Positions 1 through 7,591 of a stretch of 64,000 nucleotides of DNA are shown piece by piece. The notes under the pieces were generated by a model. It ran no database searches. It was not told the origin of the DNA and worked only from the letters and a program-made list of their open reading frames with translations. The stretch comes from Gemmatimonadota bacterium (GTDB lineage: Bacteria; Gemmatimonadota; Gemmatimonadetes; Gemmatimonadales; GWC2-71-9), in the NCBI GenBank assembly GCA_039591655.1, contig JBDHDE010000009.1:1-64000 (forward strand). The letters are read 5' to 3'. Both the position numbers and the translations under genes were made by a program. Within the stretch, counting starts at the first letter, position 1. Each line of letters begins with the position of its first letter.

Positions 1-115
1 GCGGCCACCAGGGTCCTTCGTCGCGAGTCTGCCCGGACACCGATGACGCCATCGAGGCGATGGCCAGGAGACAGACGCAGGGAATCGCGAGTCGGCGTGA
101 AGGGTGGGAGATCAC
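1..115 (-). CDS. N-terminus of a secreted protein, probably cyclase (kynurenine formamidase-like) family; runs off the left edge
   Basis: Not in the ORF track. GAGGAGG RBS at 123-129 and GTG at 115 give MISHPSRRLAIPCVCLLAIASMASSVSGQTRDEGPWWP: a signal peptide followed by a GPWWP motif recalled from cyclase-family N-termini. Confidence 0.55.
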   Translation of the reverse strand, partial: MISHPSRRLAIPCVCLLAIASMASSVSGQTRDEGPWWP

Positions 116-405
116 GAGTGCACCTCCTCGGGTCGAGAACGGCCCCGCCAGTCCAACGTCGGTGGTCCTGGCGGTCACGTCCGTCGGTGGGGCGTCCAAC
201 TTTGGAGGCCGCTCGCTCTGGCGAGGCGGGCCGTCGAGGCCACTCGGCGGATCGACGGACATGGCTAAGGTGCAACGGCCAGCAGGTGAAACAAGCTTGA
301 TTCGGGTCGGGATTCGGCGGGTCCGGCAGGAGCCCTTCGAGGATGCGGGGCGCAGCGACTAGGTGTTTTGGCGGCCGCCCCCCCTAAGCCCACCAGCCCT
401 GGAGA

Positions 406-507
406 CTGGTAACGAGAGCAGCGCGATACCCTAGAAGCCCCGTGACGAAACGGCCTTGCAGCTCGGAGGATGTTGGGTGGGTCTCAGGCTGGACCCGGCC
501 TGATGCC
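406..507 (+). repeat. att-arm-like repeat, copy 1
   Basis: 102 bp, 90/102 identical to 525-626 by manual ungapped comparison; starts CTGGTAA. Confidence 0.9.
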
Positions 508-524
508 GTGGCATGATCTAGACG

Positions 525-626
525 CTGGTAACGGAAGCAGCGCGATACCTCGGAAGCCCCGTCAGGAAGCGGCCTTGCGGCTCGGAGGATGTTCGGTGGG
601 TCTCAGGCTGGACCCGGCGTAATGCC
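525..626 (+). repeat. att-arm-like repeat, copy 2
   Basis: Direct repeat of 406-507 with a 119-bp period; its first 92 bp match 1909-2000 at 66/92 without gaps. Confidence 0.9.
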
Positions 627-742
627 ACAATGTCTGTTACAATCGAGCGAGCCGACCTGCGCAGGCTCGCGGTCGCGGTGACGGGGCTGCATCTTGATCC
701 CCACTCACAAACTCAACCGGAACACCTGAAGGAGATGAGAAC

Positions 743-1686
743 GTGATTGAAGAGATCTCTGCGCAGGAGTTGAACACCGATCGGTTCATCGAGGAGAAGG
801 TCGACGAGATTCGCGCAGCCATAGGTGAAGGGATGGCGATCAACGCGCTCTCAGGAGGCGTGGATTCGTCGGCCGTCACGCTGCGTCTTCATCGACAACG
901 GCCTCATGCGGGAGCAGGAGCCAGATCAGGTTGTCGGTGCTTTCCAGAAGCTCGGCGTCCTGGTGGAGATCGTCGATGCGCGAGCAGAGTTCTTCGCGGC
1001 GCTCAAGGGAGTCACGGACCCGGAGGCCAAACGAGAATCTATCACCCAGACCTTCTACCGAAACGTGTTCGGACGCATCGTCAGGGAGAGCGGGGCCAAG
1101 TGCCTTCTCCAGGGAACCATCCTCACTGATGTCGATGAGACGGTGGCAGGGATCAAGCGGCAACACAACGTCTTTGCACAGCTCGGGATTGATCCGCAGG
1201 AGGCCTTTGGCTACCACATCGTTGAGCCGCTCATTCAGCTTCGCAAGGACGGCGTCAGAAGGGTGGGCAAGGCTCTCGGGCTTCCGGACGAGATCAGCGA
1301 GCGCATTCCGTTCCCAGGACCGGCGCTCTCGGCACGCGTGATAGGGGAAGCAACACCCGAGCGGATAGAGACCGTCCGAAAAGCAACTGCAGTTGTAGAG
1401 CGATTGCTGGGAGGGACAGGCGCATTCCAATATCTGGCGATCCTTCATGAAGACCGCGTGACCGGTATGCGGGACGGCAAGCGTGATTTTGGCCAGCAGA
1501 TCGAGGTGCGTTGTTGGGACAGCGTGGACGCGCGGACTGCCACGCCAACTCGGCTCTCGTCCGAGATCCTCGAGAAGCTCGCGCTCGAGGTCATCCGCGA
1601 GGTGCCAGACATTGTCAGCGTCACGTACAACATGGCGCCAAAGCCTCCCTCCGCCAAAGCCTCCCTCGACGATCGAGGCGATCTGA
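743..1686 (+). pseudogene. guaA: GMP synthase subunit B (ATP pyrophosphatase plus dimerisation domain), disrupted twice
   Basis: Motifs SGGVDSS, FIDNGLMR, LLQGTI, IKRQHNV, PFPGPAL, VTYN..KPPSTIEAI. Frameshift at ~884 and a 16-bp tandem duplication at 1636-1667. Confidence 0.85.
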
Positions 1687-1792
1687 CGTCACAAGCCCGG
1701 CAGGACTCGTTGCGCTGGCAGACGCGGCCCTCCGCTGAGTCCTTGGCTCCAGAGGATAGCGGTGGCGCTCGTGAGCATCGGTGGGCGTCGGT

Positions 1793-1813
1793 CCCGCATC
1801 TGGACCCGCGGAG
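1793..1813 (+). repeat. left-arm att-like repeat CCCGCATCTGGACCCGCGGAG
   Basis: 21 bp identical to 6478-6498. Confidence 0.9.
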
Positions 1814-1900
1814 GCCTAGTTTGCGCGTAGTTTGGGTCTCTGCTCAGATAGGGGGCAAGTAGCGACAACGACTTACGCAGCCGGACGAACGGCGAGGACT

Positions 1901-2000
1901 CTTAGGAGCTGGTAAGCGGAGCCGCCTGACCCCTCGCAAGACCCGTCACGCAGGCCACTTACGGATCGGCCAATCTTCGGTGGGTCTCAGTTTGGGTCCG
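1901..2000 (+). mobile_element. att-like site: tRNA-Leu anticodon-loop core CTTAGGAGCTGGT plus right arm (repeat copy 3)
   Basis: 1901-1913 is identical to tRNA positions 6683-6695; 1909-2000 is colinear with the 406 and 525 repeats. Confidence 0.7.
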
Positions 2001-2080
2001 CTTCTTCTCCCTGGCAGGACGACTCCCGCTCTAGTGGTGGGGTTGGGGAAGAACAGCGCCCGGCGCGGGGCCGCACAGCG

Positions 2081-2114
2081 AAAAGCCCCGAACGCCGCTG
2101 GGACGTTCGGGGCT
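2081..2114 (-). terminator. Rho-independent terminator after the matrixin gene
   Basis: 11-bp stem AGCCCCGAACG/CGTTCGGGGCT ending in a short T-run on the minus strand. Confidence 0.7.
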
Positions 2115-2143
2115 GTGCGATAGGGCACCGCGTGGATCAGTCT

Positions 2144-3151
2144 CTACTGACCCCGTGCATATAGGGACCTGAGCCCTGCAACATCGGGGGGCAACGGCGT
2201 GCGCTCCTCGCCACCCAGGTAGAATGGGTTCATAACAGCTTCGGGGTTGAACACCCTCAGGTTCGGCTTGAGTTTGAATGGTTGATTCCCGTTCGGTCGG
2301 TCATAATGGATCGGCCCACCGAAATGGCCAAGTCCGACGGCGTGTCCATTCTCGTGTACGGCGATCGTCTCGATGTCGATTGGCGCGGTCTCATCGAGGT
2401 AGACCGCGTCGGTTGTGGTCCACGCAAAGTCCGCGTTGTACAACTGCTCTACATAGAGCATATCCCGGTAGCCATCACCGTCGGTATCTGGCACCGAAAA
2501 CCACCAAGTCACGCCGATGATGGAACTGCTGCCCAGGCAGTCCTCGAAATACGCCGGATCGATCCAGCCTCCAACCACGATGTGCGCGGCGGGAATGAAC
2601 GCAATCAGACCGGTGTTCGGGTCATAGAAGATCAGGTTGTCTGCAGCAAGATCGACGATGTCGATACAGTTCCCACCAGGGTCGAGGATAACTCCGTCTA
2701 GGATGTCGTAGTTACCACCGATGTCTGGAAGTCGGTTCGCCAGAAGGCTGGTATTGTCGATGTTGTTCCAGCTGTCATAGGCACTCACGAGTACTGCGTC
2801 CACGTCCCCAGACAAAACGTCGGTCGTATAGTCAGACTCGTCGAGCATGTAGGTCACTTGCGGATTTGACCAACGGGTTCCAGTGCGGAGGCGACCGAAT
2901 GGGTCCGTGCCCGGGCCGATACGGAAGAGCCATGGGTACTCCAGACGCATCTCGCTACCACTTGCTTCGAGCCCTGCATTGACTCGCTCCACAAAGGCAG
3001 CGATCTGTTCATATGCTGGATCGACCTGATTCCCCGATTTCCTAGCAAACGCCGGGTCGCCAGCGGACTGTGTGGCTGTCGGAGTCGTCGTTGGCTGCTC
3101 GCACGCGGTGAGGACTGCGAAGGCTGCTAACAGAGGGATGCAGCGTTTCAT
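2144..3151 (-). CDS. matrixin (M10-like metzincin) metalloprotease, lipoprotein
   Basis: HENGHAVGLGH zinc motif, AVMNP Met-turn, lipobox LTAC; GGAGG RBS before ATG 3151. Confidence 0.85.
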   Translation of the reverse strand: MKRCIPLLAAFAVLTACEQPTTTPTATQSAGDPAFARKSGNQVDPAYEQIAAFVERVNAGLEASGSEMRLEYPWLFRIGPGTDPFGRLRTGTRWSNPQVTYMLDESDYTTDVLSGDVDAVLVSAYDSWNNIDNTSLLANRLPDIGGNYDILDGVILDPGGNCIDIVDLAADNLIFYDPNTGLIAFIPAAHIVVGGWIDPAYFEDCLGSSSIIGVTWWFSVPDTDGDGYRDMLYVEQLYNADFAWTTTDAVYLDETAPIDIETIAVHENGHAVGLGHFGGPIHYDRPNGNQPFKLKPNLRVFNPEAVMNPFYLGGEERTPLPPDVAGLRSLYARGQ

Positions 3152-3304
3152 GGCGTGCCTCCAGTTGGCTGTGGCGATGCGGGTGTGCGCAGCAGGAGCT
3201 TCTGCCCCCCGGCGGATCGACGGATACCGCAAATGTGTCGCTGGGGGCACAACTCGCAAGGGCAAATCTGAAGCGGGTTCTTTCAGTTTAGCGGCCCCGA
3301 GACA

Positions 3305-3333
3305 CCAGCGCCCGGCTCGGGGCCGGGCGCTGG
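3305..3333. terminator. palindromic hairpin (CAGCGCCCGGC family)
   Basis: 12-bp perfect stem immediately after the stop at 3335. Confidence 0.65.
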
Positions 3334-3334
3334 G

Positions 3335-3703
3335 TCAGTTCTCAGGTAGGCTCTCGATCACCGCGATGGTGACCACTACTCCGACCACGACCAGTGCGCC
3401 GAAGATCACCCCAACTGTCAGCAGAGTGTCGGCCTCCTTGAGTTCAATGGCCGACACGTCAGCAAGCGGGACGCGGTACGGCTCGGTCCCATCGTAGCCC
3501 GAGAGGGTGTCACCGGACACCTGTGGCCCCGTAAGCACGACCTTCGAGCCGTCTGCCAACTTCACCAACACCTTGTCTGGTTGTTCCTGAGCGATCACCT
3601 GCTGCGGACTCAGATCCTGCGTTTGCCACGTCGTGCAGGCGGCTAGGTGCGTCGGCAGCAGGATGAAGGCGATGAGGCGTCGAAACGGTGGGTGTGCGTG
3701 CAT
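3335..3703 (-). CDS. small hypothetical lipoprotein with C-terminal TM helix
   Basis: GGAG RBS, lipobox LAAC, hydrophobic C-terminus. Confidence 0.7.
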   Translation of the reverse strand: MHAHPPFRRLIAFILLPTHLAACTTWQTQDLSPQQVIAQEQPDKVLVKLADGSKVVLTGPQVSGDTLSGYDGTEPYRVPLADVSAIELKEADTLLTVGVIFGALVVVGVVVTIAVIESLPEN

Positions 3704-3790
3704 TGCTCCCCCCTGATCTCCTCGCCCAAACGTGCCACCACGGGCACCCCAAACAAGAGCAGAAGCACTCGGGATTAAGCCCAGACACAA

Positions 3791-3817
3791 CAGCGCCCGG
3801 CGGGGGGTCGGGCGCTG
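3791..3817. terminator. palindromic hairpin (CAGCGCCCGGC family)
   Basis: 11-bp near-perfect stem just after the stop at 3824. Confidence 0.6.
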
Positions 3818-3823
3818 CACTGT

Positions 3824-6070
3824 CTATGGACACACATCGTCAGCTGCATCCTCCACCGCATCGATCAGGGCCTGCGCCTGTCCTTGGCTGAGCGGCGGGG
3901 TCAAATCGTTCACCTGGCCCCTGAATGCTTTGACTTGGCCGGTGATGGCCGAGCACGGTCGGCCAGCGTTGATGAAACGGAGGGTTCTGTTAAGCGTCCT
4001 GTTCAGAGTGTTGCCCTGTTCCGGCGTGAGAGTGCCGTCATCCACCAAATCCTGGATTCCGTCTTGAACTGCTCCGATCTGGTCCTGTGGGGTGACGGCG
4101 ACCTCAAGAACCCAAAGCGTGGCATGAGACTCACCCGGACCCGTTGTACTCTCGCCCACGACCGCGACGACGCCATTCTCATCAGCTTCGCTGACGTCGA
4201 AAGCCTCACTGGAACCCGTGGCGAACGAGCCGAGGTCAACCATTCCACTCGCCGCGCTCCAGAAGAAGGCTCGGAAGTCGCCAGACGCGAGGCGGCTTGC
4301 TCCGACCACATGGCCGCTACTGTTTATGGCATTGGCGCGACTCAGATCACCTCCCAGCGTTCCAAGGCTCACCATCCCGGCAGTTCTGGTCCACCGAAAT
4401 GCTCGGATTCCTCCGGCAGCGTCTCGACTTTCCCCAACTACAATGCGCAAATCGTTGATATCCGCTCCCTGACTGCAGCAGCCGCCGAGTGTGCCGAGGT
4501 CCTCCATACCCGCAGCTGGCGTCCAGAGGATTGCATGTTGATCTGCCGACGCGGTGGTGCTGAAGCCCGCTACCTCTCCCAACTCATTGATCCCCCCACC
4601 GCGGCTCAGGTTGCCGCCAGGCAAGGTTCCGAGATCTAGCAGGGGGGCTGTCTCAGTCCAGATAACAGCTCGCAGCCCCGCGGGAAAAGCCCCCAGCCCG
4701 AGTATCTGTCTGCCGTTGTTGATATCCCCGACGTCCAACACGACGCCTCCTGAAAGGGATCTGATGTCCACCATGCCGCCAAGCTCTGTCCACAGCCACG
4801 TCGTAGAACCGGTCCCGACCACTTGGCCGAGGTCATTGATGCCGACCGCAGTGCTATGGGTCAGACCAGTTGCCGTGCCAAGATCCCTCATGGCGTCTCG
4901 TGCGGTCCACAGGAAGGCACGTGGCACACTAGTGCCCGAGACTGTGCTGAAGCCCACGACCTGCCCGAGGCTGTTAGTGCCTAGAGCGCGGCTTTGATTG
5001 TGACCTGGCAGCGCCCCTAGATCGGTCATTGAGAGAATCGACATGCCGGGTGCCGGACTGATTCCGACTTCAAACAGAAAGATGTCGTTGTTTCCGTTGC
5101 GGGAATCGGTCCACACTATGCGGTCCCCAGAGATCGCGGGGTCACGCTGTCCGAACGGATCCGTAGTTACTTGAGACTCGCCTCCGCTGACCAGGTCAAG
5201 CATGAAGATGTCCAGGTTACCGTTCCGGCCATCCTGCCACGCGATCCGATCACCAGAGATTGAGGGCTGTTCTTGATCGGCTAGATCGGCAGTGAGCTGA
5301 ATCTCCGTCCCAGTGGCCAAGTCGAACATGAAGACGTCGAAGTTCCCGTTCCTACTGTCGTCCCACACGAGCCGGTCCTGGAAGACCCCGAGATACCGCG
5401 AGAGCGACCCGATTCCAGAGTGGAAGTGCGTCTCTGTTCCAGCCGTAACGTCGTACATCGCGATCACCCTAGCCCCAGAAATGGCGACGTATTCAAGCCA
5501 GAAGATGCGGTCGCGGTCAATGACGGGATAGGACTCAATGTTGTTGTCATTCGTGATCTGGGTCTCGACGCCACTTGCCAAGTCGAACATGAAGATGTCC
5601 ACGTTGCCTGCATCACCGCGCCAGACGACGCGGTCACCCGAGATCGCTGGCATGAACTCGTGGGTCGATGCGGTACTAATCTGGGTTTCCGACCCCGTTG
5701 CCAAGTCGAACATATAGACGTCAAAGTTGCCGTTTCGAAGGTCCAACCAGACAATCCGACCCGCCGAGATGGCTGGCTCGAGCTGATCACTGGGGTCACT
5801 TGTGATCTGAGTTTCGGCTCCCGTACCCAGGTCAAGAAGAAAGACGTCCGAGTTACCGTTACGATTGTCGGCCCACACTACATGATCCCCGTCAATAGCG
5901 GGTTGGATCTGCGAGGCCGGGTCCGTCGTAATTGGGCTCTCGGTGCCTATGGCGATCCCGGTTGCTGCGAACAACGGCGGCGGCTGATGTGCAACTACAT
6001 ACGGTTCTGTAGCATCGCTGCAGGCACCGAGTACGATCGTGGCAAGGCCCAGCAGGGCAATACGCTTCAT
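3824..6070 (-). CDS. lipoprotein with seven PAISGDRIVW-type beta-propeller repeats, seven HAF-type repeats and a helical C-terminus
   Basis: Lipobox LGAC; repeats PAISGDRIVWxDxRNGNxDIF and AFxWT..GMxDLGTLGG..S.A..IN..G.VVG; GGAGG RBS. Confidence 0.85.
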   Translation of the reverse strand: MKRIALLGLATIVLGACSDATEPYVVAHQPPPLFAATGIAIGTESPITTDPASQIQPAIDGDHVVWADNRNGNSDVFLLDLGTGAETQITSDPSDQLEPAISAGRIVWLDLRNGNFDVYMFDLATGSETQISTASTHEFMPAISGDRVVWRGDAGNVDIFMFDLASGVETQITNDNNIESYPVIDRDRIFWLEYVAISGARVIAMYDVTAGTETHFHSGIGSLSRYLGVFQDRLVWDDSRNGNFDVFMFDLATGTEIQLTADLADQEQPSISGDRIAWQDGRNGNLDIFMLDLVSGGESQVTTDPFGQRDPAISGDRIVWTDSRNGNNDIFLFEVGISPAPGMSILSMTDLGALPGHNQSRALGTNSLGQVVGFSTVSGTSVPRAFLWTARDAMRDLGTATGLTHSTAVGINDLGQVVGTGSTTWLWTELGGMVDIRSLSGGVVLDVGDINNGRQILGLGAFPAGLRAVIWTETAPLLDLGTLPGGNLSRGGGINELGEVAGFSTTASADQHAILWTPAAGMEDLGTLGGCCSQGADINDLRIVVGESRDAAGGIRAFRWTRTAGMVSLGTLGGDLSRANAINSSGHVVGASRLASGDFRAFFWSAASGMVDLGSFATGSSEAFDVSEADENGVVAVVGESTTGPGESHATLWVLEVAVTPQDQIGAVQDGIQDLVDDGTLTPEQGNTLNRTLNRTLRFINAGRPCSAITGQVKAFRGQVNDLTPPLSQGQAQALIDAVEDAADDVCP

Positions 6071-6477
6071 GAGGGACCTCCGGTGGCGGAACGGTATCCA
6101 GGTGCACAGACGCCCAATCGCCCGGACAATTACGTCCGAGCCTCGTCTCCACCCCCTCATCCCATGTATTTGAACGGAATCCGCTAGGCCGATTGCTTAC
6201 AGCCGTGCGCCGGTGCTCCGGTGCTGCGCCTAACTAGTAGTAAACTGTATTCTTGCCTGCCCCTCGGGCGTGCCGCGCAGGCCTAACGTGAAGCTCCACC
6301 GGAGAATTCTGCGAGCACCACAGCTTAATCCGCTCGCAGCCTAATCCGCACAAGCGCCGCCTGGACAGGGAGCCGCCGTGGGGATCTTCCTCTCACCAAT
6401 CTGTGATTCGGAAACCCGCCCGGCCAGGACTATCCGGGGGCGTCAGGTGCTCGAATTGGGACATTCGATCAGGTGGA

Positions 6478-6498
6478 CCCGCATCTGGACCCGCGGAG
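6478..6498 (+). repeat. left-arm att-like repeat upstream of tRNA-Leu
   Basis: Identical to 1793-1813; TGGACCC occurs twice with a 12-bp period. Confidence 0.9.
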
Positions 6499-6650
6499 AT
6501 ACCGGAGAATGCCCCACCAAACCGCCGACCATGCGGGAAAACACCACATCTGAAGATCGACCTGGACCCGTCCCCGAGGACCCAGAAGCCCCGTCCTCCG
6601 GGCGCATTCCCTATGCTGACAAGGACTTAGATTTTACCTTATGTGATCCC

Positions 6651-6732
6651 GCGGCCGTGGCGGAACTGGTAGACGCGCCAGCCTTAGGAGCTGGTGGGGC
6701 AACCCGTGGGGGTTCGAGTCCCTCCGGCCGCA
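6651..6732 (+). tRNA. tRNA-Leu (anticodon TAG), CCA not encoded
   Basis: Acceptor GCGGCCG/CGGCCGC, D-loop TGGTAGAC, stem CCAGC/GCTGG with loop CTTAGGA, long variable arm, GGTTCGAGTCC T-arm. Confidence 0.97.
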
Positions 6733-6736
6733 TCGA

Positions 6737-6772
6737 AAGAGCGCCTCGACCTGGTTCCGTCGCGGCGCTCTT
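6737..6772. terminator. hairpin after the tRNA, between convergent genes
   Basis: AAGAGCGCC...GGCGCTCTT inverted repeat. Confidence 0.6.
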
Positions 6773-6799
6773 CGCTTGCATAGGCGAGCGGGATCCCAG

Positions 6800-7591
6800 C
6801 TAGCCGCCTCCGGTCCCCTCCCCTGGGGTCCCGGTACCCGGCCCGGATCGCGGCTCCGGCACGTGCGCCTGCCGCGCCGCCTGCTCAGCCCGCTGTTGCC
6901 TGTCCCGCCACCGTTTGCGCGGCTCCTCCTTGGACAACTTGTGGAGGTTCTTGCCGAAGCGGATCACGAGCACCGCGAACATCGCCAGCGCCATCAGCGC
7001 CACCGCCGCGTTGGCGACGAACCGCACCTCATTCCCGAGCCCCGGCAAGAGGGTGGAGCTGAGCCAGAGCGCGACGTTCGCGAGGATCAGGACGATGCGG
7101 GCCTCGGTAGGACCGATCCGAGCGTACGCGATCTTGAATACGCCGAAGACGGCCGATTCGAGATAGACGTTGATGGAAAGCGTGAGGTAGACCAACATCA
7201 GGACCAGTGCCAGATCGAGCCGCACGTACGGCGACAGGCCCAAGCCGATGCCGATCACGGCCGTGGTGAACGCGTCCACGACGTGGTCGATGTAGTACCC
7301 GTAGCGCGGCCGCTCGGCCTTGCGCACCCGGGCCAGGGTTCCGTCCAGGCTGTCCCCGAACCAGTTGACCACCAACATCATGCTCGCGAACCACAGCCAG
7401 TCCGGATCGCGCCCGGAGAGCGCGTAGCCAGCTCCGCAGCCCACGGCTCCGAGCACTCCAAGGGCCGTGAAGTGGTTGGGGTTGAGCCAACCGGGCACGC
7501 GGGCGGCCATCGCGCGGAGCATGCGACGCTCCGGCTCCGCCAGCAGGAAGGTCATCTCACGCTTCGCTTTCGCCGTCTCTCCCGTCGCCAT
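6800..7591 (-). CDS. CDP-alcohol phosphatidyltransferase family protein
   Basis: DSLDGTLAR...GYYIDHVVD signature; TM helices; GGAG RBS before ATG 7591. Confidence 0.9.
   Translation of the reverse strand: MATGETAKAKREMTFLLAEPERRMLRAMAARVPGWLNPNHFTALGVLGAVGCGAGYALSGRDPDWLWFASMMLVVNWFGDSLDGTLARVRKAERPRYGYYIDHVVDAFTTAVIGIGLGLSPYVRLDLALVLMLVYLTLSINVYLESAVFGVFKIAYARIGPTEARIVLILANVALWLSSTLLPGLGNEVRFVANAAVALMALAMFAVLVIRFGKNLHKLSKEEPRKRWRDRQQRAEQAARQAHVPEPRSGPGTGTPGEGTGGG

Follow-up and report, generated by a model that had tools for sequence, protein, structure and literature searches.

The 64-kb window analyzed here, the whole stretch of DNA under study, is the opening part of contig C9 of a Gemmatimonadota genome assembly (3.31 Mb in 149 contigs, 95% complete) and carries an intact tRNA-Leu(TAG) gene at 6651..6732 of the forward strand (ARAGORN, Rfam RF00005). 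The DNA on the 5' side of this gene is very probably an accretion array grown at the tRNA. Furthermore, we favor with moderate confidence that the region represents a tandem row of recombinase-free modules, built by the integrase of a visiting satellite-like element. A stack of non-autonomous modules 5' of the tRNA, with crossover in the anticodon loop and phage-type arms, had been proposed by an earlier sequence-only reading of the window, and this proposal is supported by the anatomy of the sites, their breakpoints and the confinement of the arms to this locus. Its suggestion of a new integron-like system did not stand, because att-bounded, integrase-less elements accreted in tandem are already described as cis-mobilizable elements (CIMEs) in the accessible parts of PMC5704250 and PMC7563491. 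Integrase-less tandem accretion at a tRNA is known, and the variant found here is a module end carrying an orphan integron attI. In the following, C-numbers denote contigs of the source assembly (G000), G-numbers genomes and L-numbers loci.

Attachment sites on the 5' side of tRNA-Leu(TAG)

The tRNA gene, the only match of an Rfam scan and the sole TAG leucine tRNA called by ARAGORN in the assembly, forms its anticodon arm from a stem at 6678-6682, a 7-nt loop at 6683-6689 and a stem at 6690-6694. At 1901-1913 of the forward strand, CTTAGGAGCTGGT is identical to 6683-6695 and begins at the first base of the loop, representing a core composed of anticodon loop and 3' stem. This identity, the starting point of the sequence-only reading, is exact, and the 13-mer has four copies in the assembly, every one within the array. 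Directly behind it lies the third of three right arms, all on the forward strand: copy 1 at 405..507 (nhmmer E 1.6e-23), copy 2 at 516..626 including a degenerate type-2 core, and copy 3 at 1908..2010 (E 8.8e-28), with 7-nt motif pairs at 478-496, 597-615 and 1981-1999, respectively. The 92-bp versions of these arms at 406, 525 and 1909, recognized before, are 89%, 65% and 72% identical in ungapped comparison. Copy 3 marks the left end of the tRNA-proximal 4.8-kb module and is 83-88% identical to three junctions on C5. Copy 2 follows copy 1 after 119 bp, which corresponds to an empty module, and the same 119-bp doublet occurs in L075.

The sites at 406 and 525 do not belong to the tRNA loop; in an alignment of 11 cores, another 7-nt core precedes both copies, and the 7-nt spacer varies among such type-2 cores. 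At 393..409 (forward strand) this type-2 core consists of two 5-bp half sites around a 7-nt spacer that differs from the anticodon loop. It terminates a conserved block, L2, at 157..392. The L2-like blocks in L075 are 82-91% identical and adjoin other cargo, and the first ~120-160 bp of L2 recur at arm-free positions in the genome, C95, C6, C101, C36, and C124 holding partial copies.

The left arm proper covers 6471..6650 of the forward strand and is composed of a motif pair (6474-6492), a conserved stretch and the last ~50 bp before the tRNA. A remnant at 1790..1813, restricted to the motif region, is identical to 6475-6498 in 23 of 24 positions. Of the 21-bp left arm proposed earlier, the exact repeat at 1793 and 6478 was verified, its only further genome copy being on C5 in the same array; the proposed extent fell short, since the real arm measures ~180 bp. 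Three more left-arm copies (one partial) are found on C5 and others in further genera. The last ~50 bp are common to relatives without arms and likely represent the promoter; a scan of 1-6900 for sigma-70 promoters and terminators found nothing. A decayed tRNA half in 1814-1900 was considered and rejected, as it did not rise above shuffled sequences (115, 254, and 144 of 300).

Both arm types share the 7-nt motif paired across a 5-nt spacer, i.e., the 12-bp period noted in the sequence-only reading. The array contains 10 such pairs versus 0.19 expected from the remaining genome, and pairs with spacers of 2-4 and 6-9 nt occur 0-1 times each. As the motif was derived from the array itself, the spacer control alone is independent.

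The window begins at the contig end, hence only the last part of the array is visible in it. The start of C9 and the end of C107, as well as the starts of C107 and C5, share 114 identical bases each, and the array likely continues for ~29 kb onto these two contigs. The joined path comprises nine sites at successive distances of 3.6, 7.5, 1.3, 1.7, 8.6, 0.12, 1.4, and 4.8 kb, together 29.0 kb, and its GC content is 62% compared with 67.5% for the genome. Eight right-arm copies were detected in the genome by profile (five on C5, three in the window; nothing else under E 2), and all of these, together with all four left-arm matches, fall on the C5-C107-C9 path. The arms are consequently confined to this locus, as the sequence-only reading required, and not scattered over the genome. 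The displaced 5' half of tRNA-Leu that it expected left of the window was found three times on C5, where the junctions run from left arm through a tRNA 5' half, ending with the anticodon stem, into a right arm. Given the contig join, an intact tRNA is thereby preceded by 5' fragments in the same orientation, the arrangement defining 5'-fragment islands in tRNA genes (tDNA islands); within the window itself there is only the 13-bp core. Both arms are kept on the C5 5409-side module and on the window module 1901-6695, and some other modules have one arm truncated. Approximately 12 kb of further non-conserved genes lie left of the array.

The cargo of the array includes a two-component pair, Ser/Thr kinases, glyoxalases, a methyltransferase, an M1 peptidase, and a saccharopine dehydrogenase. 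Pfam scans, which took in the called cargo and not every open reading frame (ORF), revealed neither a recombinase nor a relaxase. Contigs of runs X1 and X2, which belong to one study and may stem from the source sample, connect 6682 back to 1901 at depths of 12.2 and 7.2, with a likeness of 88 and 35 letters on the shorter side. This join fits a circle or, equally, a tandem neighbor in a related strain and is not counted as support. As a side observation, the C5 end that leads to C107 also branches into C95 (L004). The latter opens with a 94% identical kinase gene, shares the leader and hairpins, also contains a HAF-repeat gene, and may be another strain's version of the array.

The locus in relatives and a candidate integrase

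Comparison with genus-mates showed that the genes right of the tRNA (a CDP-alcohol phosphatidyltransferase gene, trigger factor, and what we take from their sequence to be clpP and clpX) are conserved in order. The distance from the same left-flanking gene to the tRNA varies from 3.1 kb in G007 over 5.5 kb (G002), 8.4 kb (G004), and 20.3 kb (G010) to 40.7 kb in this genome, with mostly different genes at the same spot, which supports the sequence-only reading. G002, G004, G007, G008, and G009 have only ~50 bp before the tRNA in common. Since these arm-free genus-mates keep just this stretch upstream, the left arm is not the native flank.

Of 300 family genomes, 13 gave a right-arm match, seven of them at E < 1e-4, and the arm usually lies directly behind a tRNA-Leu 5' half. 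A pattern scan for the arm returned 21 genome-contig loci; eight match the arm profile at E<1e-10 and come from records all titled as Gemmatimonadota or one of its subgroups, and the other 13 resemble chance hits. Modules recur together with the arm in L068 (92% identity over 3.2 kb), L026 (88% over 1.4 kb), and L063 (98% over 300 bp). As two of the three module-sharing genomes are genus-mates, vertical descent is possible.

Extra copies of the tRNA 5' half are present in many of 400 family genomes. In 15 of 16 such fragments from relatives the match to the tRNA is lost 0-1 nt past the anticodon loop, the breakpoint known for tDNA islands, and four of them continue into this right arm. The sixteenth fragment matches 6 nt more, since the start of the right arm resembles the 3' stem there and in the window alike. 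Where a single contig carries both a fragment and the intact gene (10 genomes), the fragment lies upstream every time; G155, whose near-full tRNA copy is interrupted, was excluded from this count. The search targeted 5' halves, so that it measures the 5' side and not islands on the 3' side; L140 has an integrase on the 3' side of the same tRNA. The 5' position, regarded as exceptional in the sequence-only reading, turned out to be common at tRNA-Leu(TAG) in this family and to be a known minority type in Islander (PMC4383910), where the portion of the source at hand gives 159 of 3919 islands.

The same anticodon loop is used on its 5' side by other element families (L126/L127, L128, L124/L134/L135/L138, and L035), each of which has, as judged by eye, its own short repeat pair with an 11-12 bp period. 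G217 appears, also by eye, to hold two tRNA fragments and an intact gene in tandem. In G010 (L027, 8536-8614) and G009 (L033, 17209-17285) the leftmost remnant consists of the upstream region plus ~16-17 nt of the tRNA, and its break is not at the anticodon loop.

Consistent with the earlier observation that the window lacks an integrase, none of the four PF00589 matches in the genome is on C9, and PF00239 has no match in the genome at all; large serine recombinases were outside this search. The genome encodes a XerC-like and a XerD-like protein, an N-truncated IntI on C97 (TIGR02249 above cut-off), and, next to a tRNA-Ile, a 142-aa fragment. The expected tyrosine recombinase was thus not encountered on the path or left of the window, while a candidate family exists elsewhere. 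Its key representative is L139, a 6,963-bp contig found by searching arm-bearing genomes. It contains, in order, a type-2 core with motif pair, an integrase (416 aa, PF00589) pointing toward that core and pair, a 165-aa gene, a DUF3631 gene, a 231-aa gene, an AAA ATPase gene, a left arm, and the tRNA. A Pfam scan matched PF00589 and DUF3631, left the 165-aa and 231-aa proteins unmatched, and revealed no conjugation genes. The left arm of L139 is 91-98% identical to that of the window and its tRNA end agrees in 109 of 109 bases, up to the contig end. Since the bin hosting L139 contains another tRNA-Leu(TAG) of deviating sequence (69/82 identical) whereas that of L139 matches the window's, L139 probably originates from a close relative of the source organism.

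A second representative, L185, encodes a 56% identical sister of the L139 integrase (tree support 93/86 in a tree of 28 of the 30 loci, two short ones being omitted) and has a right arm ~220 bp from the integrase 3' end (E 2.2e-9 in 676 kb, with a model built without L185). Within 96 integrase 3' flanks, the motif pair was present in three, namely L139, L185 and one distant locus. Inspection by eye indicates that a direct-repeat pair and then a tRNA usually follow behind integrases of this family; direct-repeat pairs as arm-type sites are expected from lambda-type integrases. A relative of this integrase is encoded in 107 of 400 family genomes. We give the family of the L139 and L185 integrases an even chance of being the partner of the array.

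Two other candidates were dismissed. The G036-type integrase family is present in 0 of 10 genus genomes and shows no arm match in 30 loci besides the tRNAs, and in G142 (L138) an intact integrase of 388 aa, located just upstream of tRNA-Leu(TAG), is associated with a different repeat pair and no arm match. Elsewhere in the genome, an integrase fragment of the L139 family at C127 1793-2425 (L151), just upstream of tRNA-Ile(GAT), represents a second 5'-side island in decay. In L158 and L187, integrases of this family are located directly before the start of a gene, presumed from its sequence to be RecQ-like, instead of a tRNA.

Probable integron attI and attC sites in the array

The ~430 bp conserved before the tRNA are composed of two parts. 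The left arm, as described above, agrees with the phage-type arm of the sequence-only reading; the preceding part at 6222..6470 (reverse strand), which that reading overlooked, matches the spacer between the intI 3' end and attI of integrons, without an intI. An attI-type GTTAGGC box at 6234-6228, conforming to the GTTRRRY rule for attI boxes, faces into the module. A profile built from four array copies of this spacer gave full-length matches in G010 (E 2e-15), G002 (5.6e-10), and on the genome's own C97 (4.2e-7); these three spacers start 45-53 bp behind the intI match and end at a GTTAGRC box. With partial matches in five further intI 3' flanks, 8 of 29 such flanks score at E<0.01, and no intI 5' flank scores under E 0.7. 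The window spacer is 58% identical to that of G010, compared with a mean of 48% and a maximum of 51% for shuffled sequences. The array sites are therefore assigned to attI by homology to the spacer from intI to first gene in relatives, and this homology, as a sequence-based claim, is highly probable.

Four of the five strong spacer matches in the genome lie within the array. Three left arms are fused to an attI spacer, and as these spacers are just 67-76% identical, the fusions do not reflect a recent duplication. G119, a member of another genus, likewise has, at the same tRNA, a left arm linked to an attI-like site. No description of an att arm fused to an orphan attI was found in the literature searched, which was covered at title and abstract level, with supplements and most subscription journals outside.

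In G013, G103, and G118, cassette arrays follow the intI 3' end, which makes them inverted-integrase integrons, a class described in the accessible part of PMC4889954. Models of attC from these integron genera located attC sites in the genome, and four sites outside the array yielded a second model. Full matches were obtained at C5 6323-6463 (E 6e-27) and C107 3907-3767, in addition to a long partial match at C107 1436-1324 and four short remnants. The attC sites and attI boxes of the array have the same orientation, and the C5 attC folds as a long hairpin (z -2.7). Directly behind the fused attI copies at C5 16938 and 5870 there is a gene followed by an attC or its remnant. The C5 and C107 parts thereby contain at least two attC sites without a nearby intI, as in attC-site clusters without an integron integrase (CALINs), which does not apply to the part inside the window. 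No IntI adjoins attI on the path, the sole IntI of the genome being the truncated one on C97. Owing to the attI spacer and the attC sites in modules further left, IntI is to be considered a second recombinase involved. Judged from sequence features, actual use of the orphan attI inside the modules appears about equally plausible and doubtful.

Hairpins at 2052, 3304, and 3789 were examined as attC candidates and discarded, lacking boxes and any match to the attC profile. The N-truncated IntI (C97 6083-7248, L152) lies directly behind a methyltransferase gene and has the attI spacer on its 3' side. Other attC sites are scattered over C105, C130, C137, C54, C35, C33, and more contigs. In L248 (G118:C1 8001-26000), an integron of the inverted type has more than 20 attC sites within 15 kb, all 98 bp long and near-identical.

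Mechanism, rival explanations and further features

Based on this anatomy, each module would comprise a right arm and, if intact, a left arm carrying the tRNA upstream region and 5' half. A module circle, consisting of left arm, tRNA 5' half, loop, and right arm, would recombine with the tRNA gene at the 7-nt loop. The incoming module's own 5' half would rebuild the gene, so that the 5' half of the intact tRNA-Leu would come from the last module; the old half would stay behind, joined to the new right arm, and older modules would be pushed leftward and decay. Mobilization would occur in trans, with the integrase supplied by L139-like visitors and the 12-bp-period motif pair on both arms as candidate arm-type binding site. 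Modules without a tRNA half at the right end (398, 517, and 1901) may have entered at internal junctions or lost the half later. In a second, likely layer, IntI acting in trans would add attC cassettes at the inward-facing, intI-less attI of three left arms. A two-tier shuttle without enzymes of its own, in which an attI-ended carrier is loaded by IntI and then shipped and stacked by the satellite integrase, both in trans, is a tentative extension that we regard as rather unlikely. If true, cassettes of chromosomal integrons would gain a site-specific route between genomes without transposons. As assembled, neither layer can run on resident genes, since the genome has only an integrase fragment and the C97 IntI lacks its N-terminal third.

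Several observations weigh against this reading of trans-built modules. Despite 95% completeness, no full-length integrase of the candidate family is present in the assembly, only the 142-aa fragment. Two loci make the link to the integrase, and at the integrase end each has, instead of a tRNA half, a type-2 core whose 7-nt spacer differs from the loop. The right-arm profile did not detect the integrase-end arm of L139, four other relatives at 57-66% identity have no motif pair, and 79 integrase loci from metagenomes yielded no right arm. The arm pattern had 0 matches in metagenome and viral contig collections, and the five arm-free genus-mates named above vary at this locus without detectable arms. 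On the integron side, just 1 of 11 left-arm loci outside this genome has the attI fusion, and orphan attI spacers without arms exist as well (C5 10318-10454, G002 C1, and G002 C73). The attC profile found no site in the window, including behind its attI copy; no attI lies upstream of the attC sites on C107 within their module, and the C107 attC does not fold attC-like at minimum energy. Furthermore, the 29-kb length depends on the 114-bp overlaps, with C5 also overlapping C95 in a fork, and a far-left boundary of the array with a native promoter remnant was not found on C5.

Alternatively, the array could be a graveyard in which former self-mobile islands at this tRNA lost their integrases by deletion, leaving the arms as scars; the modules would then not move on their own but could still ride out with a neighbor in a CIME-like manner. 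This is the textbook origin of CIMEs in the parts of PMC5704250 and PMC7563491 consulted, and it agrees with truncated or degenerate arms at C5 12861, 4106, and 2506 and at window 1790, as well as with L035, a 2.4-kb 5'-side island at the same tRNA enclosing a broken integrase. However, the family profile, even when run unfiltered, detected no integrase remnant on the path (best E 1.5), small modules recur with the arm in other genomes, and the motif pair keeps a fixed spacing on both arms across genera. We consequently consider this origin a possible but clearly less probable one. Far less credit is due to a local duplication or strain co-assembly, by which the long array would partly be an assembly product. 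The window does start at a contig end, C107 and C95 both branch from C5, the doublet of 119 bp at 399/518 resembles a local duplication, and none of the contigs listed from four runs spans the window stretch. Yet the copies are 65-89% identical with unrelated genes between them, five sites lie inside the single contig C5, separately assembled relatives have the same junction types and doublet, and near-identical X1 contigs bridge the sites 399 and 1901. Hardly any weight remains for an integron remnant, a CALIN with orphan attI located beside the tRNA by chance, in which IntI did everything and the arms are incidental. Such an origin would account for the concentration of strong attI-spacer matches (4/5) and several attC sites in the array, but it is largely refuted already by the loop-exact breakpoints. 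Module borders are tRNA 5' halves and arms instead of attC, the arms fold into no significant hairpins (z -0.9), most arm-bearing loci in relatives lack both attI and attC, and the window modules contain no attC.

Compared with known systems, the modules of the array resemble CIMEs, as far as the available text on the latter extends (PMC5704250 and PMC7563491; composite islands of the ICESt1/ICESt3 type). Arms are present at both ends, genes for integration and transfer are absent, and the elements are arranged in tandem at one target gene with the newest beside it. Unlike CIMEs, the candidate partner looks satellite-like (integrase, DUF3631) with no conjugation module seen, the geometry is 5'-sided, up to eight modules are stacked, and an orphan integron attI occurs at module ends. 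The intact tRNA, the displaced 5' fragment upstream, the anticodon-loop break, and a tyrosine integrase family near it in relatives correspond to the tDNA islands of Islander, whose accessible description lists 125 tandems of at least two islands and four of at least three. Because Islander, by this description, requires an integrase per island, the array modules would be filtered out; no integrase of the searched families, which did not include large serine recombinases, lies within them. Tycheposon islands of Prochlorococcus (bioRxiv 10.1101/2020.12.28.424599), in the partial description compared here, likewise grow from the tRNA end with partial tRNA copies between neighbors, arrivals pushing older elements inward and integrases partitioning by tRNA. 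Tycheposons, in contrast to the array modules, encode their own integrase, and the array has conserved arms of 100-180 bp on integrase-less modules in addition to attI. Homology of the attI spacer, attC-bounded genes downstream and the missing adjacent intI are shared with inverted-integrase integrons and CALINs, insofar as PMC4889954 and PMC8618304 (the latter on integrons in Gemmatimonadota and CALINs) could be consulted; unlike there, the attI of the array is welded to a phage-type arm and tRNA half, and modules are not attC-bounded.

As island finders need an integrase and integron finders know attI for few classes, neither type of program sees these modules. They account for a variable locus of 3-41 kb in the little-studied Gemmatimonadota, and with the pieces named, among which are intact IntI genes of genus-mates, movement of modules in trans and docking at the orphan attI become testable by plasmid assay.

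The window modules carry four cargo genes. A GMP-synthase gene (743..1685, forward strand; guaA C-terminal, ATPPase-type) matches PF00958, and TIGR00884 at E 3e-61, below cut-off, and is 35% identical to the resident gene on C1. Its frame is broken near 884 and it has a 16-nt duplication near 1636; contigs of three runs have 34 letters more at 884 and 16 fewer at 1636 than the assembly, a strain difference or assembly error. The remaining three are on the reverse strand: an ORF at 2144..3151 for a predicted secreted protein or lipoprotein with a matrixin-like match (PF00413, E 3e-7), a 122-aa protein without family match (3335..3703), and a beta-propeller and HAF-repeat protein (3824..6070; TIGR04275 and TIGR02913 above cut-off).

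A shared GC hairpin ends many accessory genes (14 copies by a strict pattern), and some genes start behind a 120-160 bp leader. Leaders or hairpins are located at window positions 157-318, 2052-2114, 3304-3332, and 3789-3817 and on C95, C101, C61, C6, C35, C122, and C124. Contigs of runs X1 and X2 fuse the leader at 318 straight to the hairpin at 2052-2054, and leader plus GC hairpin possibly constitute another type of repeated gene unit.

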